A stretch of DNA of 64,000 bases from Phycisphaerales bacterium (GCA_003171335.1 PMYD01000089.1:34958-98957), one strand, 5' to 3'; shown: positions 2,366 to 61,247, counted from the stretch's first letter. Translations and numbers: made by a program. Notes: generated by a model not told the origin, from the letters alone.

Positions 2366-5227
2366 ATGAAATCTGCAATCCTGCTGTCGGCCGGCGTATT
2401 GTGCATCTCCCTTCTGGTCTGCCCCGCAGTGGCCAAAGACTGGTACATCTCACCTTCGGGCCTGCCCGGCAATGCCGGCACACAGGCGTCGCCGTGGGAT
2501 ATCTCCTCGGCGCTCAATGGCAGCAAGAATGGCAGCATTATGCCCGGCGATACAGTCTGGATGATGGATGGAACCTACATCGGCGATCGCGCCGGCCTCA
2601 ACGGGAACCTGTGGGTCAAGCTGCTGGGCTCCCCCAGTGCGCACATCACCCTGCGACCTGTTCCCGGCGCGCATGCCAAGATTGACGGCGGCCTGGCCGT
2701 TGGCGAAGTCGAGAATTACGGCCAGGGAAACGTGTACACCCCCAGCGAATGGCTGGACATCCGCGATATTGAAATGGCCTCGACGCCGTGGCTGAACAAT
2801 GTCATTTCCCAGCAGTCCGGCCCCTGGCCGGGTGACATTCCCTTGCCATTTGGCGGCGCCAATTTCTTTTGCGGCACCGGCATCCGGGTGATCAACTGCG
2901 TTCTTCATGCCGGCTCGGAAGGCATCTCCTGCTGGCAGGAAGTCACGAACTTTGAGGCCTACGGCAACCTCATCTACGGCTGCGGCTGGGAGGCCCCTGA
3001 TCGCGGCCACGGTCACTGCATCTACACACAGAATGGCGACCCCAACGGCAAGTTCTACCGCGATAACTATTTATCCACTCGCTACCCCGCCGGGCAGCAG
3101 ACGATACAGGCCTATGGCAGCGGAGATGCCAATACCTCCCACTTCTGGGTCGAAGACAACATCGCCACCGATGGCGGTCAGTTCCTGGTGGGCGGCGGCG
3201 GTCCTTCCGATGACAACCACCTGCTGGGCAATATCCTCAATGGGTGCGCTATGTGGGCCGGTTACAGCTTCTCCGCCTACAACCTCAGGTACGAAGTGCG
3301 AGACAATTGGGTCGTTAATGAGAGCATTAATTACTGGCGGATTCAGAACCTGACGGCCAGCAACAACACGGTCATCAACGGAACGATCAACCTTTATCCT
3401 TATCCTGCCACGCCCAATGGGGTGGTCACGCAGGGTTCACCCGTTCCCAGCCAACCGACGATCTTCCTCAAGCCCAATGCCTACGACCCCGCGCGAGCCC
3501 ATCTGGTCATTTTCAACTGGCACAACGCAACGAGTGTCCCTGTAAACTTCGGCGGCCTGGTCGCCTCCGGCGGACCTTTCCGGCTGATGGATCCCAAGAA
3601 CTTCTATGGAACGCCCTTGTTTCAAGGCTATGCCGATGCGACCGGCAGCGCCAATGTTCCTACCGTGGATGCCAACCACAATCCCACGCTGTTCAATGTC
3701 TTCGTTGTGCTTGCCGGCGCCCTGGGCAACATGGCCCCGCAGGCGAATGCCGGGCTTGACCAGTCGGTCACGCCGCCGGCGAACACCGCGACATTGACCG
3801 GCACCGTGACCGACGACGGCCTGCCCACCGGCGCGGTTGTGACGCACACCTGGAGCCAGGTCTCCGGCCCCGCCGCCACGATCGCCAATCCTTCGGCCTT
3901 GTCCACGTTGGTCACCCTGTCGGGCGGCCCGGGAATCTACGTGTTCCGCCTCTCGGCCAGCGACACGGCCCTGAGCAGCTATGACGACTGCCAGGTCACG
4001 CTCATCGGCAATCGACCTCCCGTGGTGAGTGCTGGGGCCGACCAGCACGTCTCTCTGCCGGCGACGACGGCCACGTTGGCCGGCACGGTCAGCGATGACG
4101 GCCTGCCGCCTCCCGGCACCGTCACGTTGGCCTGGACCCTGCAAAGCGGACCCGGAACGGTCAGCTTCGCCAATGCGGCCGCCGCCGCCACGACGGCGAC
4201 GTTTTCCACGACCGGCACGTACGTGCTGCGCCTGACCGCCAGTGATTCAATCCTCCAGGGTTACGCCCAGTGCACCATCACCGTCCAGCCGCCCGGCTTC
4301 GGCGAGCAACCTTTTGCAGGGGTCCCCTGGCTTCTGCCTTGCCGCATCGAGGCGGAGAACTACGACCTGGGCGGGCAGAACGTCGCCTACTATGACACCA
4401 CCCCGGGCAACTCCGGCGGGGCGTATCGCACCGACGATGTCGACATCCGCGTCACCACGGATGTCCGCGGCGGTTACCTCGCCAAGGACATCGTCGCCGG
4501 AGAGTGGCTGAAATACACGGTCAACGTGCCCTGCCTGGGGGTCTACAGCATCAGCGTCCGCACGGCTGGAACCAACACCGGCAAGTATCTGCACATCGAG
4601 TGCGATGGCAACGACGTGACAGGGCACATCAACCTGCCCGCCACCGCGGATTGGGATAACGGAGTGACGACGACCGCGCCCAACTGTGTGCTTCCGGCCG
4701 GCATTCACATCCTCCGGGTGTACTTCGACACGAACGAGTTCAACTTCAACTGGTTCCAAATCGCCACGGTCAATGCCGCCCCAGCCGCCAGCGCCGGGCC
4801 GAACCTGAAGGTGATGATCTCCAACGCCCTGACGTTGGCCGGCTCGATCAGCGATGATGGCCACCCTAGCCCGCCGGCCGCCTGCTCGGCCGCCTGGAGC
4901 AAGCTCTCCGGGCCCGGCACGGTTACATTTACCAACCCGGCAGCGGCCCTCACGACGGCCACCTTCTCCACCGCCGGCACCTACATGTTGCAGTTGACGG
5001 CAAATGATTCGCAGTTTTCCAGCACGAGCACCACGACCGTGACCGTCCTGGCGCCCGGCGATTTCAATGGCGACGGCCTGGTCAACGGCGCGGATTTCCT
5101 CATCTGGCAGCAGCATTACCCGATGCTCAGCGGTGCGGCCGTAAGCGATGGCGACGCCACCGGCGACGGGAAGGTCGATGGCCAGGATTTCCTGGTCTGG
5201 CAGCAGAACTACAAGCCGATGCCGTAG
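2366..5227 (+). CDS. Secreted right-handed beta-helix (pectate-lyase-fold) protein with Ig-like repeats, a CBM6/CBM35-like carbohydrate-binding module and C-terminal dockerin repeats
   Basis: Signal peptide MKSAILLSAGVLCISLLVCPAVA, preceded by RBS AAAAGGA. The N-terminal domain has beta-helix-like repeats (NCVLHAGSEGISCWQ...). Three SDDGLP Ig-like repeats follow. A CBM6-like segment reads CRIEAENYDLGGQNVAYYDTTPGNSGGAYRTDDVDIRVT. The C-terminus has two DFNGDGLVNGADFLIWQ dockerin-like repeats. Confidence 0.7.
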   Translation: MKSAILLSAGVLCISLLVCPAVAKDWYISPSGLPGNAGTQASPWDISSALNGSKNGSIMPGDTVWMMDGTYIGDRAGLNGNLWVKLLGSPSAHITLRPVPGAHAKIDGGLAVGEVENYGQGNVYTPSEWLDIRDIEMASTPWLNNVISQQSGPWPGDIPLPFGGANFFCGTGIRVINCVLHAGSEGISCWQEVTNFEAYGNLIYGCGWEAPDRGHGHCIYTQNGDPNGKFYRDNYLSTRYPAGQQTIQAYGSGDANTSHFWVEDNIATDGGQFLVGGGGPSDDNHLLGNILNGCAMWAGYSFSAYNLRYEVRDNWVVNESINYWRIQNLTASNNTVINGTINLYPYPATPNGVVTQGSPVPSQPTIFLKPNAYDPARAHLVIFNWHNATSVPVNFGGLVASGGPFRLMDPKNFYGTPLFQGYADATGSANVPTVDANHNPTLFNVFVVLAGALGNMAPQANAGLDQSVTPPANTATLTGTVTDDGLPTGAVVTHTWSQVSGPAATIANPSALSTLVTLSGGPGIYVFRLSASDTALSSYDDCQVTLIGNRPPVVSAGADQHVSLPATTATLAGTVSDDGLPPPGTVTLAWTLQSGPGTVSFANAAAAATTATFSTTGTYVLRLTASDSILQGYAQCTITVQPPGFGEQPFAGVPWLLPCRIEAENYDLGGQNVAYYDTTPGNSGGAYRTDDVDIRVTTDVRGGYLAKDIVAGEWLKYTVNVPCLGVYSISVRTAGTNTGKYLHIECDGNDVTGHINLPATADWDNGVTTTAPNCVLPAGIHILRVYFDTNEFNFNWFQIATVNAAPAASAGPNLKVMISNALTLAGSISDDGHPSPPAACSAAWSKLSGPGTVTFTNPAAALTTATFSTAGTYMLQLTANDSQFSSTSTTTVTVLAPGDFNGDGLVNGADFLIWQQHYPMLSGAAVSDGDATGDGKVDGQDFLVWQQNYKPMP

Positions 5228-5468: not shown

Positions 5469-8400
5469 ATGTTCCGATCCGTGACCCTCATGAGCTTGTC
5501 GATGCTGCTGATTGCCCTTACGAACGCCCCGCCGATGGCCGGCGCGGCTATTGTGCTGAATGAGGACTTCGACAGCGGCGGCTTGAACGTGCCCCTGTGC
5601 ATAATCAATACGAGCAACCCCTCCCGGCCCGCCATCACCCTGGCCGGCCGGTATAACTGGCCTGAAGACCCCAGCCAGTGGGCGTGGATGATGTTCTCCA
5701 TGACCGGGGCAAATGCCACCACGCCCCAATTCACCGTGTTGGCAAGCAATATCGGCGGCGGGGTTTATTACCCAGCGAGCTGGACACGCTATGTCTACAG
5801 CTATGACCAGCAGAATTGGTTCTTCTTCGACAACGGCTCGCTGAATTCCGGGTCGCTCATTTACAGCTTCAGCAACAATTCCGCGTTCAATCAGAACACC
5901 GTGTATGTCGCCCTGGGCATTCCTTATCCCTGCTGGCGGACCGCGGCGTTCGTGGCCTCCATCAAGAGCAATCCCTACGTGAAACCCACCGCCAGCGCCG
6001 ATGCGAATTGCATTGTCGGGAACACCCCTGGCACCTACGGGCACGACGCCAACGGCAATCTGTATTACGATGACATGGGCCGAGTGGTCCCGTCCATGCC
6101 CGTTTTCGGCTTCATGATCAACGACGCCAACGCCACCGGCCCCAAGACCCGCGTGGTGATGCAGAGCGGCAACCACGGCGCTGAGCACTGGGCGCATTAT
6201 GCCCTGGAGGGTATGGTCCAGGCGCTGCTGTCGAACGATCCGAACATGGTCGCCCTGCGGCAGAAGGCGATCTTCTTCATCTATCCGGACGTCAATCCGG
6301 AAGGCAATTACTGCGGCTACTGGCGCTCGACGCCCGTCAACCCGGGTAACCTTCCTGGTCTTACCGCGGACCACAACCGGCTCTGGGCCGACCCCAACGG
6401 CCTGGCCGTCGGCTTTGGCGGTCCCACCAGGAATCCGGAAATTGCCATCGTCGAGAACGCCCAGCGCGCTGATGCTGGAAGCGCCGAATACTTCCTCGAT
6501 GTGCATGGCACCTGGGATCCCACTTCAGGTCCGGATTATCTGAATCTCACCTCCTACAATTCCGCCTTGGCGAACAACCTTCGTCTGATTGATCCGGGCG
6601 ATATCGGAGCGGAAACTTACTGGGGCGATCTGCGGTTTGCGATGGGGTACGCCTCGGCGCCGGTTTCTACCGGCGGCCTGGCCGCGGTCACCAGCCTCAC
6701 GCCCGAGATCGGCATGAAGGCCGGAGAGACCGCCGACTATAACCGGCAACTGGGCAAGTACTATATGATGGCCCTGTACGCCACGCTGAACGCCCCGGGT
6801 AACAATTTTCCCCCGACCGTCAGCGCCGGCGCCAACCAGACCATCCACCTGCCGACAAACACGGCAAGCTTGGCCGGCACCGTCAGCGATGATGGCCTGC
6901 CGACCGGCTCGGCCGTCACCGTTACCTGGAGCAAGGTCAGCGGCCCGGGCACGGTCACCTTCGCCAACGCCAGCGCCGCGGCCACCCGGGCGACCTTCTC
7001 GACCTCGGGCACCTACATCCTCCGCCTGACCGCCACGGACACGGCTTTGCCGACCTTCGCGCAAATGCAAGTCACGGTAGCCTCGGGCAATGCACCCCCT
7101 GTAGTCAACGCGGGAGCCAACCAGAGCATTACGCTGCCCATCAACACCGTCAACCTGGTCGGTACGGTCAGCGATGACGGTCTGCCCACCGGGGCGGCCG
7201 TGACGACCACCTGGAGCCGCCTGGGCGGCCCGGGCAGCGTCACCTTCGCCAACCCCAGCGCCTTGAGCACCACAGCCACGTTCTCAACGGCGGGCACCTA
7301 TGTATTGCAACTAGCGGCCAGCGACACGGCGTTGACTGGCACCAGCAACCTGCAGGTTACGGTTATCCCCGCGAATCAGGCTCCCGTAGTTAATGCCGGT
7401 GCGAATCAGGCCATCACGCTGCCGGTTAACACCGTCGCGCTGGCCGGTACGGTCAGCGATGATGGTCTGCCCACCGGGGCGGCTGTGACGACCACATGGA
7501 GCCGCCTCAGCGGTCCGGGCAACGTGACCTTCGCCAACACCAGCGCCTTGAGCACCGCGGCCACGTTCTCAACGGCGGGCACGTACCTGCTGCAACTGGC
7601 GGCCAGCGACACGGCTCTGACTGGCACGAGCAATATTCAGGTTACGGTTGCCCCCGGCGTTAATCAGGCTCCGGTAGTCAGCGCCGGTGCTAACCAGGGC
7701 ATCACGCTGCCGATCAACACCGTTGCGCTGACCGGTACGGTCAGCGATGACGGCCTGCCCTTCGGGGCGGCCGTGACGACCACATGGAGCCGCCTGGGCG
7801 GCCCGGGCAGCGTCACCTTCACCAACGCCAGCGCCTTGAGCACCACAGCCACGTTCTCAACGGCGGGCACGTACATGCTGCAACTGGCGGCCAGCGACAC
7901 GGCTCTGACTGGCACGAGCAACATGCAGGTTACGGTTGCCCCCCCGGGTAATCAGGCTCCCGTGGTCAGTGCCGGTGCGAATCAGACCATCACGCTGCCG
8001 GCCAACACCGTCGCGCTGGCCGGTACGGTCAGCGATGACGGACTGCCCACGCCTCCCGGCGCCGTCACGCTGGCCTGGACCCTGCAAAGCGGGCCCGGAA
8101 CGGTCAGCTTCGCCAATGCGGCCGCCGCCGCCACGACGGCCACGTTTTCGACGGCCGGTACGTACGTGCTGCGCCTGACGGCCAGCGACACGGCGTTGAC
8201 ATCGTATGGCCAGTGCACAGTCGTGGTGCAGCCGCCAGCGTCGCCGTCGCACGCAGAACGCATCCTGATTGATGTCGGTGACCCAACGACCGGCAGTGGC
8301 ACGGGTTGGAACAATTTCACCGTACATCCTCACTGGTCTGGCACTCCGGGCGTGGACCAGGATGGTTACGATGTGTACCTGCAAGAGCTTGCTCCTGGCG

Positions 8401-20782: not shown

Positions 20783-20789
20783 GGAAGAA

Positions 20790-20836
20790 TTTCAAATAGC
20801 CAATTTCCAATTGCAAATTAGCAATTGGCAATGGGT
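20790..20836. repeat. Short AT-rich palindromic element (CCAATT/CAATTG units)
   Basis: CCAATTTCCAATTGCAAATTAGCAATTGGCAATGG between the hisS stop and the downstream gene start. Same periodic style as the elements at 22683, 24848, 29328, 61210. Confidence 0.5.
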
Positions 20837-22152: not shown

Positions 22153-22220
22153 GAATCTCGTTCTCCGGGTGGCACAGGCTTTTAGCCTGTGTCGGGCCGC
22201 AGGCTCAAGGCTGTGCCAAC

Positions 22221-22682: not shown

Positions 22683-22853
22683 AAATCCCAAATCCAAAAT
22701 TCCAAATCCCAAACAAATCCCAAGCACCAAATTCCAAACGGGGATGTGCCTGGGGCACTCCTCGACGCGCTGGGCAGATGCTCCGGCGCGGAGTTTGGAA
22801 TTTGGAATTTGGTGCTTGTTTGGGATTTGGAATTTGGGATTTCCCCGCCGCCT
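22683..22853. repeat. Composite palindromic intergenic element: ~55-bp AT-rich arms built from CCAAAT(T)/GGATTTG heptads around a GC-rich palindromic core
   Basis: Left arm ATCCCAAATCCAAAATTCCAAATCCCAAACAAATCCCAAGCACCAAATTCCAAAC. The right arm is its near reverse complement (GTTTGGAATTTGGAATTTGGTGCTTGTTTGGGATTTGGAATTTGGGATTTCC). The core contains GTGCCTGGGGCAC. It sits in the divergent promoter gap between ykgJ-like and cimA. Confidence 0.8.
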
Positions 22854-24847: not shown

Positions 24848-24951
24848 TGGTCAATTGGTCAATTAGTCAATTGGTCAATTCGGGGGGGGGAAGCGCCTGC
24901 CTCTCTACTAATTGACGAATTGACTTGTTGACTAATTGACCGATTGACGAC
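24848..24951. repeat. Palindromic intergenic element of GTCAATT octamer units, ending 2 nt before the valS ATG
   Basis: Left arm GGTCAATTGGTCAATTAGTCAATTGGTCAATT, spacer GGGGGGGGAAGCGCCTGCCTCTCTAC, right arm TAATTGACGAATTGACTTGTTGACTAATTGACCGATTGACGAC. Confidence 0.75.
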
Positions 24952-24952
24952 T

Positions 24953-27900
24953 ATGCCAACACAACTGGACCCTGTCTACGACCCCAAACGTTTCGAGGCC
25001 GCCGCCTACCAGCTCTGGGAGCAGGCAAAGAGTTTCCATGCCGAGCCAGGCGATGGCGAGAAGTACTCGATTGTCATCCCCCCGCCCAACGTAACGGCCC
25101 CGCTGCACCTGGGCCACGCCCTCAACAACACGCTGCAGGATATCCTCATCCGCTGGCAGCGGATGACCGGCAAGGCGACGCTGTGGATGCCCGGCACCGA
25201 CCACGCCGGCATCGCCACGCAGACGGTCGTCGAGAAGCGCATCCTCGCCGAAGAGGGCAGGCGGCGGACCGATTTCGCCCGCGAGGAGTTCGTCGGCCGC
25301 GTGCAGGCGTGGAAGGATGAGTACGAGGCCCGCATCGTGGGGCAACTCAAAGCGATGGGCTGCTCATGCGACTGGGACCGCAGACGTTTCACCATGGACG
25401 AGATGTGTACCCGCGCCGTCCGCGCGGCGTTCTACCAGCTTTTCGCCGATGGGCTGATCTACCGCGGCAAGCGCCTGGTCAACTGGGACCCGGCGACGCA
25501 AACCGTGCTGGCCGATGATGAGGTCGAGCACGAGACGATCAAGGGCTTCTTCTGGTATCTGCGCTATCCGCTGGTCGAGGGTGCGGAGATCGACGGCAAA
25601 CGCGTCGAATGGGTCACCGTCGCCACGACGCGGCCCGAGACCATGCTCGGCGACACGGCCGTGGCGATCAACCCGCGCGACCCGCGCGCCAAAACCCTGG
25701 TGGGTAGGCAGGTGCGCCTGCCCATCGTGGGGCGAATCATCCCCATCATCGCCGATGACTACGTCGTCATGAGCGACCCCACCAGCGAGGATGCCAAGGC
25801 TCGCTTCGCCACCGGCTTTCTCAAGGTGACCCCCGCCCACGACCCCAACGACTGGGAGATCGGCCGGCGGCACAACCTGCCCGTGATCAACGTCATGGCC
25901 CCCGATGGCAGCATCTCGGACAAGCATGGCTGGACCGACGCCACGGAACCGGAGGCCCAAAATCTCCTGGGCATGGATCGTTTCGAGGCCCGCGAGGCCA
26001 TCGTCGAGTACTTCCGCGAGGAGGGCCTGCTCGAAGAGGTGCGCGATTACGAACACGAGGTCGGCCACAGCTACCGCAGCCACGTGCCCATCGAGCCGTA
26101 CCTGTCAGACCAGTGGTATATCGCGGTGAAGAAGCCGCTTGCCCTGAGCGAGCGCAGCGAGTCGAAGGGGATTGTAAATTGTAAATTGCAAATTGCAAAT
26201 TGGGAACGGGAACATGCGGAGTTGGTTGAAAAACAGGGCGACCTGACGGTGCTGAAAGGCACCGACGTGCCGGTTAATTCGCTGGCTGGCATGGCGCTGA
26301 TGCCGCTGCTGGATGGGCGGCTGAAGTTCGTGCCCGACCGCTACGCCAATACCTACCGCGCCTGGCTGGAGAATCTGCGCGATTGGCCCATCAGCCGACA
26401 GCTCTGGTGGGGACATCGAATTCCCGTCTGGAGCATAGAGTTCTCGCAGGCCCATCATGGCAAAGAAGCCGATGGCAAGCGTCCAGAGCATGTGGCCAAC
26501 GAGATGCGTGACTTTTTCGCCAAGCGCAGCGTCACCACGCAAGTTGAACTGCGATGGCCGCCTGTTCTAGTGGAAGGGAAATGGTTTTTCCATGTCAGCG
26601 CGATGACGCCTCGTGCCAGTCGCCTGCTTGAGTTGCTCGGAAAGGTGCTGAAGCATCACCCGCCCGACAAGAGTGAACTCATGCATGAGATGTGGGATGA
26701 GAATAGGGAACTCCGGGAGGAATTTGGCGAGGAATCCCTTGCAGGGGTGACCAAACTGCGCGAGTGTCTAAATGGTTGCCAACAGGACCCCGACGTCCTC
26801 GACACGTGGTTCTCCTCCGGCCTGTGGCCCATCTCCACGATGGGCTGGCCGGAAGAAACGCCGCTGCTGAAGGCGTTCTATCCCACCAGCGTGCTGTGCA
26901 CGGCCCGCGAGATCATCACGCTGTGGGTCAGCCGCATGGTGATGTTCGGGCAGTATTTCCGGGGCGACATTCCGTTTGCCGATGTGTACATCCACGCCAT
27001 GATCCAGGATGGCGAGGGTCGAAAGATGTCCAAGAGCCTGGGCAACGGAATCGACCCCCTGGACATCATCGACAGCCACGGCGCCGACGCCCTGCGGTAC
27101 ACGCTGGCCGCCATGACCACCGAGACGCAGGATGTGCGCATGCCCGTCGAGCACATCAAGCTGCCCGATGGGCGGGAGATGAACAGTTCGCCGAAATTCG
27201 ACATCGGCCGCAACTTCTGCAACAAGCTGTGGAACGCCTCGCGCTTCGCCATGATGAACCTGGAGGCCCTGCCGGCCTTCGGCGACATCGACTGGCGGGG
27301 CAACCTGGCCGACCGCTGGATCCTCAGCCGCCTGCACTCGACCATTCGCGATACGACGGCGGCCCTGGCGGCGTATCGCTTCAATGACCTGGCCTCGACG
27401 CTCTACCGCTTCATGTGGGATGACCTGTGCGACTGGTACCTGGAGATCGCCAAGGGCCGCATCAACGCGGGCGAGACTGCGCCCAAGGCCATCCTCGCCT
27501 ACGTGCTGGATGGCCTGCTGCGGCTGCTGCACCCGATCGCCCCGTTCATCACCGAATCCATCTGGCAGCACCTCAACGAGGTGGCGCCTTCGCGCGGCCC
27601 GGCCGGCAGCGCTGCCGAAAAACTGCTCATCACGGCGGCCTGGCCGACGGCCAATGCCGACTGGATCGATGCGGCGGTCGAAACCCAGTTCGGCCTGCTC
27701 CAGGATCTCATTCGCTCCATTCGCCAGGTCCGCACGACGCACAACGTACCGCCGGCGCGGGAGCTTTCCGTGCTGGTTCGCGCCAGCGGCGAGCCGGCCG
27801 CACTGGTCGGGGCAAACGCCGGGCTTATCCGGTCGCAGGCCCGGCTGGCGGAACTGACGGTTCGCGCCGACGCCCAGCGCCCCGACTCCAAGGCGGCCAC

Positions 27901-29327: not shown

Positions 29328-29487
29328 GGCCAAAAATCCCAAATCCCAAATCCCAAACAAATCCCAAGCTCCAAATCCCAAAGGGGAACAAGAGGCCCGC
29401 TGGACAGCAGCGCGAGTTCCCGTACGGGGTTTGGAGCTTGGGATTTGGAGCTTGTTTGGGATTTGGAACTTGGAATTTGGGATTTGC
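29328..29487. repeat. Composite palindromic intergenic element of the same family as 22683-22853
   Basis: AATCCCAAATCCCAAATCCCAAACAAATCCCAAGCTCCAAATCCCAAAGGGG ... GC-rich core ... GGGTTTGGAGCTTGGGATTTGGAGCTTGTTTGGGATTTGGAACTTGGAATTTGGGATTTG. The shared core is CCCAAACAAATCCCAAGC. Confidence 0.8.
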
Positions 29488-31144: not shown

Positions 31145-31551
31145 GGCTGTTCTTCCTTCTGGGCCGGTCGCCCGCAGACGCCGGCGGTGGTTCCTTAGAG
31201 AATCTGTCGCACGCGTTTCGCACCACCACTTGATAGTCGAAACGGCCGAACCGGCCATTGGCGATCAGTCTTTTCAGTCATCATCATTTCCTTGCCACGA
31301 TGAAGGCATAAAAAAACCCGCGACATTGCAAGGTCGCGGGGCAAGTTCGTCAAGTCTGGCGTAATTCGATCAGCCCGAGCGACCCACTAGCACAGCAATA
31401 GCCCCAGTCGTAGGGCGAGGGTCAAAATATTGCTGCCGCAGGTCATCGGGTGCTCGCTTTTTCGGACTTCTATAGAGATAGTATCGTCCCGTTTGGCGAA
31501 AGCAAGAAGAAAAAGCAGGCTGCAAACCTTGGGGCAGACCGGAGCCGCACT

Positions 31552-31836
31552 ATGGATAAACCGTTAACCTCTTCCGACTACTCGCACTTGCGCAGCGAAG
31601 GCCGGCGGCTGACCGTCACCGCCACCGTGGGCAAGGCCGGTCTTACCGAGGCCGTCGCCCTGCAGATTTCGACGCTGCTGGCCCATCATGAATTGGTCAA
31701 GGTGCGGATACCACCATCCGACAAGGCCGGGCGAGCTGAAATGGCCCAGAAACTGGCTGCAAAAACCGCCGCCACGCTGGTGGAACTGCTGGGCCGGACG
31801 GTGCTGCTGTATAAACCGCTGCCAAAACAAGAGTAA
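31552..31836 (+). CDS. yhbY: YhbY/CRS1-family (CRM domain) RNA-binding protein
   Basis: LTSSDYSHLRSEGRRLTVTATVGKAGLTEAVALQISTLLAHHELVKVRI...AEMAQKLAAKTAATLVELLGRTVLLYK matches the YhbY family. Confidence 0.75.
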   Translation: MDKPLTSSDYSHLRSEGRRLTVTATVGKAGLTEAVALQISTLLAHHELVKVRIPPSDKAGRAEMAQKLAAKTAATLVELLGRTVLLYKPLPKQE

Positions 31837-31865
31837 CGTGAGCATCCCTTCTGGCGATGGCCTAC

Positions 31866-32300
31866 CGCGACTCCGACATTGTCGCAGTCAACTGCGGAAT
31901 TTCCGCAGTTGACCCCCGGCGCGACTCCATAATTTTTGGAGTCACCTCCTGATTCACGTCCGGAAATTCCGGACGTGAGTACGCCTCTGGCCGGGGAGCC
32001 GGGGCGCGACTCCGAGATTTTCAGAGTCGATCTTTCATTCAGTTCATTCCCGGAATGAACTGAGGACTGCCAGGAAGCCCCCAGGGACACAGCTCAACTC
32101 CGAAATTTTCGGAGTTGACTGGAGAAATTCTCCAGTTGGAGCTTGGCGCGACTCCGACTTTGTCGGAGTCAACTGCGGAAATTCCGCAGTTGTGCCCGGC
32201 GCGACTCCATAATTTATGGAGTCACGTCCGGAAATTCCGGACGTGAGTATCCCTTCTGGGTCCGACTTTGTCGGAGTCAACTGCGGAAATTCCGCAGTTG
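31866..32300. repeat. Array of about 12 short perfect palindromes (9-11-bp arms centred on AATT/AAATTT), organised as about 3 copies of a ~130-bp higher-order unit
   Basis: Examples: GACTCCGACATTGTCGCAGTC, CAACTGCGGAATTTCCGCAGTTG, GACTCCATAATTTTTGGAGTC, ACGTCCGGAAATTCCGGACGT, GTTCATTCCCGGGAATGAAC, CAACTCCGAAATTTTCGGAGTTG, ACTGGAGAAATTCTCCAGT, GACTCCGACTTTGTCGGAGTC. The higher-order unit recurs at about 31868-31995 and 32148-32270, with a partial third copy at 32265-32300. Confidence 0.8.
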
Positions 32301-32451
32301 AAGCCAGCGGTTGGAGTCAATGCAAGAAAATGGGGCCGTTAAGTGTTACACTCGTTATCATTTTCGGATGACTGTAACACTTACAATGCCAGCCTATGCT
32401 CAATTCCACCCTATGCGCCAATCCGAAGGAGCATCAAACTGACAGTAGCCA

Positions 32452-32589
32452 TCAGTTGAGAGCCAGGATTACGCTGTAGAAAACGCCGTTAACCCATTGG
32501 GCAACATGGTGCAGCATCATCACGGTCGGCACGGAAACGGCCGCTAGAATGAGCACCTTTTCGACTGCCGAGACACTCGTACCGGTCAT
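32452..32589 (-). CDS. Small hydrophobic protein (45 aa), hypothetical
   Basis: MTGTSVSAVEKVLILAAVSVPTVMMLHHVAQWVNGVFYSVILALN preceded by GGGAG 8 nt upstream. Lies in a lower-GC patch immediately downstream of the alpha/beta hydrolase and next to the palindrome array. Confidence 0.35.
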   Translation of the reverse strand: MTGTSVSAVEKVLILAAVSVPTVMMLHHVAQWVNGVFYSVILALN

Positions 32590-32667
32590 CTCTCGGCTCC
32601 CTCCTTCTGGCCCTACGGAATTAGAAACCGCCCCCAACATTCACCGCCGCGATCGGCGGTGCGGCCA

Positions 32668-33792
32668 TTACAGGTGCGGCGGCATCTTGGCGACTACCTT
32701 GGCGTGACTCTCCTGCTCGATGAGCATGCCGTCGAAGTACGAGACGACCATGCGGGCCACCGCCGGGCTGTTAGCCGCCTGGCCGTCGCGGGCGCCGGGA
32801 ACGATCAGCCGGGCGATATTGCCGCCGGCGCCGGCCACAATGGGCTCCAGGTCGGCCGGCGGCGTGCTCTCGGCCCTCGAGCCGGTGATCAGCAGCAAAC
32901 CGCGGTCGGTGTAATTGTGGGAGGAATCGACGGCGTTCTCATCGATGAGACGATGGCCGAAATACGCGCTCATGCCCCAACTGAAGGCGGTGCCAAGTTC
33001 CGTCGGCACGTGCATCCGATGGGCCATGTTCTCGAAAACCGCCGGCACCGAGGGATACGAATCGACCGCCACCACGCAGCGCACGCCCTTGCAGCGCGGC
33101 CCGGCCAGGATGGCGGCATAGCCGCCCATGCCCGTCCCCAGAATGCCGATACGCTGCTCATCTACGCCGGACTGGCTTTGGAGATATCGCACGGCGGCCA
33201 TCACGTCGGCCGCTTCGGTGGTGCCGAAGGAAACGGGGGCATCGGCGCTGAGCCCGTGTCCGCGGAAGTCCAGCAGCAGCAGGTCATAGCCGGCCTGGGC
33301 CAGTTCACGGCCCAGCGGATAGAGCAACTGATCGCGGTTGCCCCCGTAGCCGTGGCACAGGACCACCCCCGGGCGCCGCTGCTTCCAGTTCTCCGTCGTC
33401 AGCGGGCCGCCGGCTACCAATGAGTTGATGTACCAGCCCTTAATGATGACCCCGTCATCGCTGTTGAAACGCACATCGCGGCACACCAGCGAGAATTGGT
33501 CGGGCGTGACGGCAATCGCCTGGCGCGGCGGGTGCGTCACCGAGTAGATCATCACCAGCCAGGCGCCCATCACCACCAGCGGCAGCAGGGCCACGCGATA
33601 CAGCACGCCGCCCACAAAGCGCCACAGGTAGGGGTGCTTGGATTTGGAAGCCGGCATCATGGCGCCGAAGGGATGCCAGAATAAGATCTTGCGCATCGTC
33701 GGCCAGAAGATGTTCGTCACCTTTCCCACATGGTGAACCACGTAGGCCAAGGCGATCAGCATCCGTCGATACAGCGGCATTTGCGTAGCCAT
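32668..33792 (-). CDS. Membrane-anchored alpha/beta-fold hydrolase
   Basis: N-terminal TM helices, then VVLCHGYGGN...LLDFRGHG, a nucleophile elbow GTGMGG and a downstream His. RBS GAGG precedes the ATG at 33792. Confidence 0.7.
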   Translation of the reverse strand: MATQMPLYRRMLIALAYVVHHVGKVTNIFWPTMRKILFWHPFGAMMPASKSKHPYLWRFVGGVLYRVALLPLVVMGAWLVMIYSVTHPPRQAIAVTPDQFSLVCRDVRFNSDDGVIIKGWYINSLVAGGPLTTENWKQRRPGVVLCHGYGGNRDQLLYPLGRELAQAGYDLLLLDFRGHGLSADAPVSFGTTEAADVMAAVRYLQSQSGVDEQRIGILGTGMGGYAAILAGPRCKGVRCVVAVDSYPSVPAVFENMAHRMHVPTELGTAFSWGMSAYFGHRLIDENAVDSSHNYTDRGLLLITGSRAESTPPADLEPIVAGAGGNIARLIVPGARDGQAANSPAVARMVVSYFDGMLIEQESHAKVVAKMPPHL

Positions 33793-37062: not shown

Positions 37063-37675
37063 CAGCCACACAAAACGCCCAGGAAATCACTACCCGAGTT
37101 GACTTCGTTGATGAACTGCCTTGCTCAGCGCGGCCGGCAGAGCCGGCCCTTCGACTGCACAATCAGCACATCGCCGCGAAGCTCAGGATGATCAATATAA
37201 GAACTTTTCGTTTGTGACGCCAATTTTTCGGCCACATGGGATTACCTCCTGAGGCAATCTCGCACGCTTTTTCACTACAGCCTGAGTATACCCCGAGATG
37301 GCAAATCCGTGGGGACGCAAGTGGCACTTTTGTCGCAAAAAGGCCGCAAAAAGCGGCCCTCTTTGGTAAATTGCGCAAACTATTCCGACGGGGAAGGATT
37401 CGGGCGTAAGATGGGTAAACTCTATGAACTGCGTAATGGCAGGTTTCGCCTCAAAGGCCGTAAAATCAGGGCATTCACGTGGTCGATTCGACCACGTAAT
37501 CACGCCAAATGACCATCACTCAACCGTAACAATGTTACGGTTGAGGGTACCGAGATGAAGTTTTCGACCCGCCGGGGTCGCTATCCTTTCGTCGGGGACG
37601 GGGTTGCGAACGGCTGGCCGCAGGGTTAAAAGACAGTGAATATTGCCGCACATCAGAATAAGGTCCACGAAATTG

Positions 37676-38803: not shown

Positions 38804-39367
38804 ATCGACAGCACCGCCTACATCGCCGTGGGGTCCAACATCGACCCCCAGAAGAACATCACTGGCGCCCTGTCGCTGCTGCGGCGGCAGGTGACCGTGA
38901 CGGCGAGCTCGACGTTCTACCGCAGTCGCGCCGAGGGCCGGCCCGAGCAGGGAAGGCCACAGGCTAAAAGCCTGTGCCACCAGGAATTCTCCAACGGAGT
39001 ATGGCGGATCCACACCGCCATCGAGCCATCTCCGCTCAAATTCGACGTGCTGCGCTCCATTGAGAACCACCTCGGCCGGCGGCGGGACGTGCGCGACAAA
39101 TTCGCCGATCGCACCATTGATCTTGACCTGATACTGTATGCCGAATGTATCATTGACGCGCCCGAACTGAGAATTCCCGACCCGGGAATCGTGCGGCCGT
39201 TCGTGGCCGTGCCGCTGCTGGAGCTGGCGCCGGGGCTGATCTTGCCCGATGGCCGGCCGCTGGCCGAGTTGCCTGGGGCGAACGATCCGACGGGGCTTGA
39301 GCCACTGGCGGAGTTGACGGCGATGCTGCGGGCGGCTCTGCGACGCGATGTGAGGACCACGGAATGA
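38804..39367 (+). CDS. folK: 6-hydroxymethyl-7,8-dihydropterin pyrophosphokinase (HPPK), start codon uncertain
   Basis: TAYIAVGSNIDPQKNITGALSLL...TFYRSRAEGRPEQ...RTIDLDLILY are HPPK motifs. The first canonical start (GTG 38828) lies inside the conserved beta-1 strand. Upstream in frame only ATC (38804) is available before a TGA at 38786. Confidence 0.75.
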   Translation: MDSTAYIAVGSNIDPQKNITGALSLLRRQVTVTASSTFYRSRAEGRPEQGRPQAKSLCHQEFSNGVWRIHTAIEPSPLKFDVLRSIENHLGRRRDVRDKFADRTIDLDLILYAECIIDAPELRIPDPGIVRPFVAVPLLELAPGLILPDGRPLAELPGANDPTGLEPLAELTAMLRAALRRDVRTTE

Positions 39368-61209: not shown

Positions 61210-61247
61210 CAAATTCCAAATTCCAAGATTTGGAATTTGGAATTTCT
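61210..61247. repeat. Compact palindrome of AAATTCC/GGAATTT units in a divergent promoter gap
   Basis: CAAATTCCAAATTCCAAGATTTGGAATTTGGAATTTC. Same motif style as the 22683 and 29328 elements. Confidence 0.6.

Follow-up and report, generated by a model that had tools for sequence, protein, structure and literature searches.

A helically phased palindrome array in a Phycisphaerales bacterium with units that match palindromes of phage ParB-like genes

Between yhbY and a small hydrophobic open reading frame (ORF), a Phycisphaerales bacterium carries a dense array of DNA palindromes (31866-32301), located in a stretch of 64,000 nucleotides (GCA_003171335.1 PMYD01000089.1:34958-98957) that is referred to here as the window and from whose first letter all positions are counted. 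Extragenic palindrome arrays and iterated binding-site arrays are already known; new here are the match of array units to palindromes in phage genes, the helical phasing of the palindrome centres and the absence of a linked partner gene, which together raise the question of what the array does, and whether it does so as duplex DNA or as RNA. A robust core of the answer is that the palindromes are lineage-specific, locally amplified, capable of forming hairpins or cruciforms, of a phage-associated class, conserved over their linkers, and positioned with their dyads on one helical face. Our preferred reading, which we put forward tentatively, is that the array may be a platform of phage-type sites on duplex DNA for the docking, titration, centromere-like handling or decoying of ParB-like winged helix-turn-helix (HTH) proteins.

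A scan of the window for perfect hairpins (stem at least 8, loop at most 7) detects 10 in 31887-32301 and 26 across the remaining 63.6 kb. The chance expectation for these 415 nt is 0.17 hairpins (Poisson P = 4.7e-15), which bears out the dense array that an earlier reading of the sequence (the original prediction) had placed at 31866-32300. When near-perfect copies are counted, the palindromic units in 31866-32301 number 14; in the 10 perfect ones the arms measure 9-13 bp and the centre 1-3 nt. Against the predicted figure of at least 12 different perfect palindromes, only about 8 distinct sequences are present: Y and X1 (three copies each), Z and X2 (two each), and X3, W, Y2 and Y3 (one each). 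From left to right, the units and the first copy of an associated tail motif are as follows.

31836..31854, + strand: tail motif copy 0, ACGTGAGCATCCCTTCTGG, a direct repeat 95% identical to 32241-32259 and corresponding to the right end of a Z unit
31869..31889: X1a, GACTCCGACATTGTCGCAGTC, centre 31879; class A, one mismatch
31887..31913: Ya, GTCAACTGCGGAATTTCCGCAGTTGAC, centre 31900; class B, perfect 13-bp arms, with the centre base flipped relative to Yb and Yc
31923..31943: X2a, GACTCCATAATTTTTGGAGTC, centre 31933; class A, one mismatch
31954..31978: Za, TCACGTCCGGAAATTCCGGACGTGA, centre 31966; class B, perfect 12-bp arms, followed by tail copy 1 (31973-31990)
32008..32028: X3, GACTCCGAGATTTTCAGAGTC, centre 32018; decayed class A, two mismatches
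32039..32063: W, TCAGTTCATTCCCGGAATGAACTGA, centre 32051; perfect, 12-bp arms, inverted core TTCC-C-GGAA
32094..32118: Y2, TCAACTCCGAAATTTTCGGAGTTGA, centre 32106; perfect, fills the class A slot of its 54-bp unit
32118..32136: Y3, ACTGGAGAAATTCTCCAGT, centre 32127; perfect, two compensated pairs away from Y
32150..32170: X1b, GACTCCGACTTTGTCGGAGTC, centre 32160; class A, perfect 9-bp arms, 3-nt centre
32170..32192: Yb, CAACTGCGGAAATTCCGCAGTTG, centre 32181; class B, perfect; its 23 nt recur in the L070 and L090 phage HTH genes
32203..32223: X2b, GACTCCATAATTTATGGAGTC, centre 32213; class A, perfect
32222..32246: Zb, TCACGTCCGGAAATTCCGGACGTGA, centre 32234; class B, perfect, followed by tail copy 2 (32241-32259)
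32258..32278: X1c, GGGTCCGACTTTGTCGGAGTC, centre 32268; class A, left arm truncated
32277..32301: Yc, TCAACTGCGGAAATTCCGCAGTTGA, centre 32289; class B, perfect, the last full unit

The palindromes belong to two classes that alternate along the array. Class A has arms of the type GACTCC...GGAGTC and comprises the three X1 and two X2 units, X3 and Y2; class B has a core of the type GGAA-N-TTCC and comprises the three Y and two Z units, Y3 and W, in which the core is inverted. One class A palindrome, one class B palindrome and a GC-rich linker of about 10 nt together form a repeat unit of about 54 bp, which occurs in seven copies with start-to-start spacings of 54, 85, 88, 54, 53 and 55 bp; the period of the array according to TRF is likewise 53-54. 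Seven of these two-palindrome units, with two good copies of a 108-bp super-unit, replace the three copies of a ~130-bp super-unit proposed originally; apart from diversity, which it put too high, and periodicity, which it put too low, the original description is correct. The tail GTGAG(T/C)A..CC.TCTGG, supposed to accompany each super-unit, is indeed present three times (31836-31854, 31973-31990 and 32241-32259) and trails the Z units, but its copy 0 adjoins the yhbY stop codon, where the Z palindrome itself is absent, indicating that the left edge of the array cuts through a unit. GANTC sites are about 10-fold enriched in 31837-32320 (12 versus 1.15 expected), a by-product of the GACTCC/GGAGTC arms, which contain such sites.

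Alignment of 13 units reveals that 94.5% of the cells are paired. Changes on both sides are found in 8 of the 10 pairs (21 cells), and the observed pairing is approached by none of 500 shuffles and by no slid register. Between super-unit copies 1 and 3 the palindromes differ at only 4 of about 90 positions, whereas the linkers show substitutions and a 12-nt indel. The palindromes are thus conserved more than the linkers, and the property that is kept in the units is self-complementarity rather than a given arm sequence.

The spacing of the palindromes is equally constrained. The centre-to-centre distances are 21, 33, 33, 52, 33, 55, 21, 33, 21, 32, 21, 34 and 21 nt, and the 14 dyad centres give a Rayleigh R of 0.944 at 10.8 bp, which is the global maximum over periods of 2-120 bp; all 14 centres fall within ±1.4 bp of a single phase. 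With the linkers randomised, none of 20,000 simulations attains the observed phasing. The first nine units alone, which include independent length changes of +12, +19, +12 and +22 nt, keep the phase as well (randomisation P = 0.0013). Phased signals in bacterial DNA usually show 10.8 bp per turn. The phasing points to a constraint on duplex DNA, with the dyads on one face of the helix, and is not predicted by RNA-hairpin or neutral models.

Relatives of the array units are found in phage genes (compared sequences are designated by L numbers). A scan for GGAGTCANNNNCGGAAATTCCG over the genome collection yields 32 single matches, roughly the number expected by chance, of which 5 lie in homologous coding sequences (L007, L021, L026, L019 and L024; Planctomycetota and one Eisenbacteria metagenome-assembled genome). 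The encoded protein has a ParB-like N-terminal domain and an HTH, and matches PHROG 1033, 'ParB-like partition protein', with E 3e-20. The family comprises 412 proteins at E <= 0.001, many of which carry a PF02195 assignment; similarity to Spo0J/ParB among solved structures and NCBIfam models is weak only, and homologues in cultured phages are annotated only as ParB-like or as 'streptomycin operon regulator'. The genes lie in a conserved phage replication module, together with genes for a DUF3799 exonuclease, AAA_24, DUF669, a RusA-like nuclease, a helicase, a dGTPase, a PrimPol primase and a ParB_N-methyltransferase, and these modules are without ParA. Modules with the palindrome also encode ParB_N-methyltransferase fusions, an observation that we note beside the GANTC enrichment in the array.

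The Y unit with its non-palindromic 5' flank, GGAGTCA-ACTGCGGAAATTCCGCAGT, matches a palindrome situated directly past the HTH in these ParB-like genes. For GGAGTCA plus ACTGCGGAAATTCCGCAG, 24-26 of 25-28 nt are matched in ParB-like HTH genes, including those of L045-L047, which were found solely via protein homology. L070 and L090 contain the exact 23-nt Y unit, encoding ELESTAEIPQL, and Ya differs from the palindrome of the L021 phage gene by compensated pairs only. When the array units are compared with the phage post-HTH palindrome, Ya, Yb, Yc, Za and Zb share its form (perfect, arms of 8-13 bp, GGAA-N-TTCC core, 5' flank GGAGTCA), but not its location 24-62 nt past an HTH in coding DNA, the array being non-coding. 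X-type palindromes occur at the same post-HTH position in L234 and L239. A Z-type palindrome, GTTGTCCGGAAATTCCGGACAAC, is seen in the RhuM-like HTH genes of L188 (~2454) and L217 (~3708), where it reads VVRKFRTT right before the DGK wing motif; the Z-type DNA palindrome thus follows the HTH at a corresponding place in a second protein family and is read there in a different frame.

The behaviour of the phage palindrome was judged on 16 loci gathered by protein homology alone. In 13 of these a perfect palindrome (arms of at least 9) begins 24-62 nt past the HTH motif, and the arms differ between phages. The palindrome is retained, with a shortened centre, in L039, although the peptide changes to LTCGIRKS, and also in L056 (core GCGCAAATTGCGC), again with a changed peptide. 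In the protein list the residues around E-I-P co-vary, S before with K or N after and A before with Q or H after, in keeping with what the palindrome requires. Copies within one phage share their arms (L044, L045, L060, L155, L122 and L145): in L044 and L045 the ParB-like gene contains one copy and a second follows directly on its stop, extra copies lie directly downstream of the ParB-like gene in L044-L046, the ParB-like and primase genes of L060 hold one copy each, and L155 has three copies. Arms that are shared within a phage and differ between phages are the pattern that would be expected of cognate protein-site pairs, and the extra copies of L044-L046 are placed as parS and sopC are relative to parB and sopB. 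This widespread phage family retains a perfect palindrome within its genes, usually with a GGAA-N-TTCC core and with arms that change by compensation, even where amino acids change as a result; we infer that the palindromes may be the cognate sites of the proteins whose genes carry them. The core sequence appears in no paper of the library searched, and nothing relevant was found there on ParB sites in coding regions. In phage copies, the orientation of the central A/T base relative to transcription gives no informative signal in high-GC DNA. The family loci are L039-L062 and L064-L180, with palindromes for example at L044 3441-3467 and at L060 4966-4986 and 10136-10154.

The array occupies most of a tract that separates two convergent genes. 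The features of this region are:

31552..31836, + strand: yhbY, encoding a CRS1/YhbY RNA-binding protein of 94 aa (Pfam PF01985, E 5.9e-21); a called gene in L001
31837..32451: non-coding insert of 615 bp between two convergent stop codons
32302..32451: right part of the insert, with a degenerate half unit, TTGGAGTCAATGCAAGAAAAT, at ~32311-32331, an inverted repeat and a direct repeat
32452..32589, - strand: conserved hydrophobic ORF of 45 aa, converging on yhbY and downstream of the hydrolase gene; a called gene in L001
32668..33792, - strand: alpha/beta hydrolase gene, given as context only

The organism is a planctomycete, and by the neighbours of its LeuA it resembles Phycisphaerae. The Pfam match confirms yhbY as the left neighbour. 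The synteny comparison suggested by the original prediction reveals that the array is absent at the same junction in relatives. L003/L004 (LeuA 91% identical) and L005 have the same gene order, with a 4-nt overlap between yhbY and the small ORF; in L244 a gap of 77 nt separates the two and holds an unrelated hairpin of heptamer repeats. The overlap in the former and the different gap in the latter imply that the whole 615-bp tract (31837-32451) is a lineage-specific insert, and the array grew inside it by local duplication. The G+C content of the insert is 0.47-0.57, against a window mean of 0.64. The same-species short-read assemblies L002, L181 and L182 match the window, and all their contigs end at 31988-32021, in the first third of the array, which could reflect an assembly problem with repeats and palindromes or heterogeneity of copy number in the population. 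In the right part of the insert the arms of the inverted repeat, TAAGTGTTACA and TGTAACACTTA (32340-32383), are 16 nt apart, and the direct repeat consists of two 17-nt copies, CAATGCCAGCCTATGCT and CAATTCCACCCTATGCG (32384-32417). The 45-aa ORF, for which no Pfam match is found, has homologues of 44 aa (L003) and 43 aa (L005) with the invariant motif SVPTV..LH.VA.WV. Conservation in relatives thus sustains the hydrophobic ORF that had been proposed to follow an AT-rich leader, but the ORF is on the minus strand and converges on yhbY, so that the AT-richer 150 nt are its 3' flank and not a leader.

According to the preferred reading, the palindromes, with AT-rich centres and GC-rich arms that would permit cruciform extrusion, all on one face of the helix, would serve to dock, in dimeric form, a winged-HTH ParB-like protein similar to those that phage replication modules encode. 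The docked dimers would build one large nucleoprotein complex that nucleates, sequesters or titrates the ParB-like protein, and this complex might resemble centromeres, iteron arrays or decoy loci in the way it works. The presence of such a protein in this host, its binding to the array and the biological outcome are conjectural parts of this model, in contrast to the anatomy, insert status, covariation, phasing and Y-unit identity described above. The original prediction had already proposed iterated sites for a dimeric protein of the partition or centromere type; the 10.8-bp phasing of the dyads and the identity of Y to the palindrome of phage ParB-like HTH genes speak for it, but no cognate gene is present in the window, and the differing self-complementary arms fit a hairpin or cruciform constraint better than a single sequence-specific dimer. 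If the platform is real, this would be a rare natural chromosome with a helically phased battery of phage-type sites unlinked to the gene of the protein, and would offer a direct test of ideas on titration, decoy defence or centromere capture. The phage-gene palindrome family is a more general lead than the array and gives concrete candidate protein-site pairs; to our knowledge, very little has been learned so far about the phage biology of Planctomycetota.

Several known systems resemble such a platform in part. In the F plasmid, sopC consists of 12 repeats of 43 bp, and the parS sites of P1 and of chromosomes are bound by ParB. Like these centromeres, the array has many dyad sites for a (putative) dimeric HTH protein of the ParB family, a repeat of whole helical turns (43 = 4 x 10.75 in sopC, 54 = 5 x 10.8 here) and a site type that accompanies ParB-like genes and, in L044-L046, directly follows them. 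Iterated dyad-symmetric sites are thus in place, but no parA-parB or parB-like operon is found within ±10 kb, the arms are heterogeneous, the array lies in a chromosomal housekeeping region, and the associated phage proteins belong to replication modules that lack ParA. Iteron-type origins or incompatibility arrays have direct repeats of 17-22 bp spaced by about two helical turns, beside a rep gene and an AT-rich unwinding element; here, the 21/33-bp spacing and the phasing fit, but the units are palindromes of differing sequence, and neither an adjacent rep gene nor an AT-rich DNA-unwinding element is found. The lambda ori iterons lie within gene O, and parS lies within B. subtilis spo0J; similarly, the phage palindrome lies in linker-coding DNA just past the DNA-binding domain of its presumed binder. 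This analogy covers the phage genes and not the array, which lies outside coding DNA and has no gene of this kind linked to it, and binding by the phage family is itself presumed. E. coli datA and P1 incA may be functional analogues, as site clusters away from the functional target that sequester an initiator or partition protein, with no relationship in sequence. In Rickettsia palindromic elements and intragenic REPs (repetitive extragenic palindromes), in-frame palindromes are tolerated in unrelated genes, and here too ParB-like, primase, RhuM-like and terS-proximal ORFs translate one palindrome as EIP, RKFR or GNS; unlike scattered recent insertions, however, the palindrome of the ParB-like family is fixed in position across deep divergence and co-varies with the protein.

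A number of observations weigh against the platform. The 10.8-bp signal follows in part from tandem duplication of the 54-bp unit (54 = 5 x 10.8). The 64-kb window contains no gene of the ParB-like or HTH family according to tblastn and a hidden Markov model (HMM) of the phage family, and eight self-complementary arm sequences in one array call for many proteins or for a reader that senses shape. Clear counterparts in phage genes exist for Y only: the viral scans for Z-type and X-type palindromes give match numbers near chance, with just 2 + 2 cases in HTH genes, and the X-type cases of L234 and L239 come from such a scan. Most Z-type palindromes of viral contigs lie outside coding DNA, and some are like ordinary terminators. 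A viral-contig scan for CTKCGGAAATTCCGMAG returns 117 stretches, with the palindromic combination in 116 of 122 matches, but only about one third of the viral GGAA-A-TTCC palindromes are in HTH genes and about two thirds are neither in nor near one within the fetched stretch. Many viral copies follow closely on a stop codon or precede late genes, in some cases with two different palindromes forming a pair, and some of these stop-codon or late-operon copies bear A/T tracts like those of terminators. The closest analogous array lies on viral contig L130 (495-723), where an HNH endonuclease gene and terL flank seven perfect palindromes, all different and AT-centred. They are placed within a terS-like ORF or 5' of it, and its frame is open through all seven; one of them, AACTGCGGAAATTCCGCAGTT, equals 21 of the 23 nt of the Y unit. 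This array, in what may be a packaging-site region, is upstream of terminase and not helically phased. Finally, many intergenic regions of the window hold other hairpins, and L244 has an unrelated one at the same junction, suggesting a generic niche for hairpins.

These last points lead to an alternative that we consider possible, if rather doubtful: a cluster of extragenic hairpins comparable to bacterial interspersed mosaic elements (BIMEs) or REPs, which would serve as bidirectional terminator or insulator and as 3'-end stabiliser for yhbY and the small-ORF operon, would bind generic nucleoid proteins at most, and would owe its phage likeness to a shared hairpin genre or a single capture. 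In E. coli BIME-2, two types of short extragenic palindrome alternate with fixed linkers in tandem runs of up to about a dozen, typically between convergent genes; these clusters bind gyrase and IHF and stabilise mRNA 3' ends. The array shares with BIME-2 the two alternating palindrome types, the short linkers, the tandem arrangement and the position between convergent genes, whose 3' ends overlap in relatives; its units, non-coding and 19-27 bp long, also have the size of REPs. The strong compensatory covariation of the arms indicates a structural constraint, the predicted RNA fold has a z-score of -18, and the hairpins elsewhere in the window and at the L244 junction, as well as the terminator-like phage copies, fit equally well. 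REP and BIME elements are short (20-40 bp) extragenic stem-loop repeats that are often clustered, carry an unpaired GTAG or CGTC at one end, occur in many dispersed copies and are associated with RAYTs, which are Y1 transposases (PMC3733652). No unit of the array has GTAG beside it, and CGTC occurs only within the paired stem of Z. A search for units elsewhere, as the original prediction had suggested, detects none of the units again in the other 63.5 kb when up to 2 mismatches are allowed, chance-level partial matches aside, and finds, among 185,579 species genomes, which did not include the source genome, no other locus with at least 2 matches to GGAGTCANNNNCGGAAATTCCG. The verdict that the array is unlike REP arrays therefore holds for the tags and for local dispersal, but was too strong, as the architecture of BIME-2 matches. 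In contrast to BIME-2, the near-perfect palindromes of the array have no head-to-head orientation, and no link to a RAYT is known for it, a search for a Y1 transposase not having been made. Furthermore, 31400-32800 contains no U-tract terminator-like site, the helical phasing of the centres is left unexplained, the 7-nt non-palindromic flank GGAGTCA is common to the array and the phage genes, and the sharing of arms within one phage is not expected of generic hairpins. If the array is only such a hairpin cluster, it is a clear case of compensatory palindrome evolution, yet ordinary.

It is unlikely that the array is neutral DNA, in which a palindromic seed, perhaps from a phage gene or an old terminator, has been amplified by slipped-strand or unequal recombination at a harmless site and kept perfect by quasi-palindrome (template-switch) correction. 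Such an origin agrees with the decayed or truncated units X1a, X2a, X3 and X1c, the degenerate half unit at the right edge and the Z unit cut at the yhbY stop. The absence of the array from a relative with 91% identical LeuA shows that it is dispensable, the break of three independent assemblies inside it is compatible with instability or copy-number heterogeneity, and the genome search makes it unique in the collection covered. The better conservation of palindromes than of linkers, however, is at odds with neutrality, as is the helical phase kept through four independent indels (P ~1e-3), and correction would need to be very efficient to account for 94.5% paired cells and 21 double-sided changes.

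A narrower form of the platform model appears improbable to us, in which the array would act on the host chromosome as a decoy or sink that draws in the ParB-like HTH proteins of phage replication or partition. It would present, with several specificities side by side, the sites that these proteins normally recognise in phage genomes, also within their own genes, and would titrate or mislocalise the proteins and so interfere with the replication or segregation of phages or prophages. Its corollary would be that phage ParB-like proteins include a large family, so far undescribed, whose members carry their cognate site in linker-coding DNA just past their own HTH. Least probable is that the array acts as a structured non-coding RNA, whether a sponge of many hairpins or a small RNA derived from the 3' untranslated region of yhbY, with hairpins that bind an RNA-binding protein: the predicted fold is very stable, the array is directly 3' of yhbY with no intervening terminator and every unit has GGA motifs, but these lie in stems rather than loops (which also led to rejection of a CsrA-type sponge), perfect DNA palindromes are strand-symmetric and leave the sense strand unmarked, phasing is a property of duplex DNA, and the lack of an Rfam match at gathering score in the array (sub-threshold miRNA-like noise only, at E < 1), of a sigma-70-like promoter and of a U-tract terminator gives no support for a role as RNA.

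Other known classes were considered and rejected. The array is not a clustered regularly interspaced short palindromic repeat (CRISPR) locus, as the original prediction had stated: the units abut or share repeated linkers, there are no spacers, and no cas genes occur within ±10 kb. Integron attC arrays, type III toxin-antitoxin repeats and retrons do not agree in anatomy, spacers, cassettes or partner genes being absent. A pseudogene relic of a ParB-like gene is likewise rejected, since the HMM matches only an ESTAEIPQL-like pseudo-peptide without an HTH, and stops are present in all frames. A blastn search with the whole 615-bp insert gave no match among cultured phages or plasmids.

The window contains further repeats of other types. 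Long intergenic hairpins made of tandem 7-8-nt repeats and their inverted copies are present at 22683-22842, 24848-24950, 29334-29486, 61210-61245, 20788-20832 and 26171-26202, for example (AAATCCC)n ... (GGGATTT)n directly 3' of leuA; the hairpin in L244 at the junction that holds the array in the window (3259-3345) is of the form (ATTGACA/ATTTACA)n. These heptamer-repeat hairpins apparently constitute a separate, dispersed hairpin class in this lineage. Downstream of genes at two places in the window (22173-22191 and 38958-38976) there is one and the same hairpin with an 8-bp stem, CACAGGCT-NNN-AGCCTGTG, with a similar one in the relative L005 (~1090-1115); it may be a dispersed terminator or REP-like element. 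Two perfect intergenic palindromes, ACGTGGTCGATTCGACCACGT (37477-37497) and CTCAACCGTAACAATGTTACGGTTGAG (37519-37545), are 21 nt apart upstream of an ORF starting near 37556 and look like operators; the GTAACA/TGTTAC motif of the right part of the insert reappears in the second of them. The left part of the window holds the ORFs 6-1946 and 2366-5227, for large repetitive proteins whose C-terminal motifs resemble those of dockerins, and a 285-bp tandem repeat at 6819-8050 with 4.3 copies and 81% matches.

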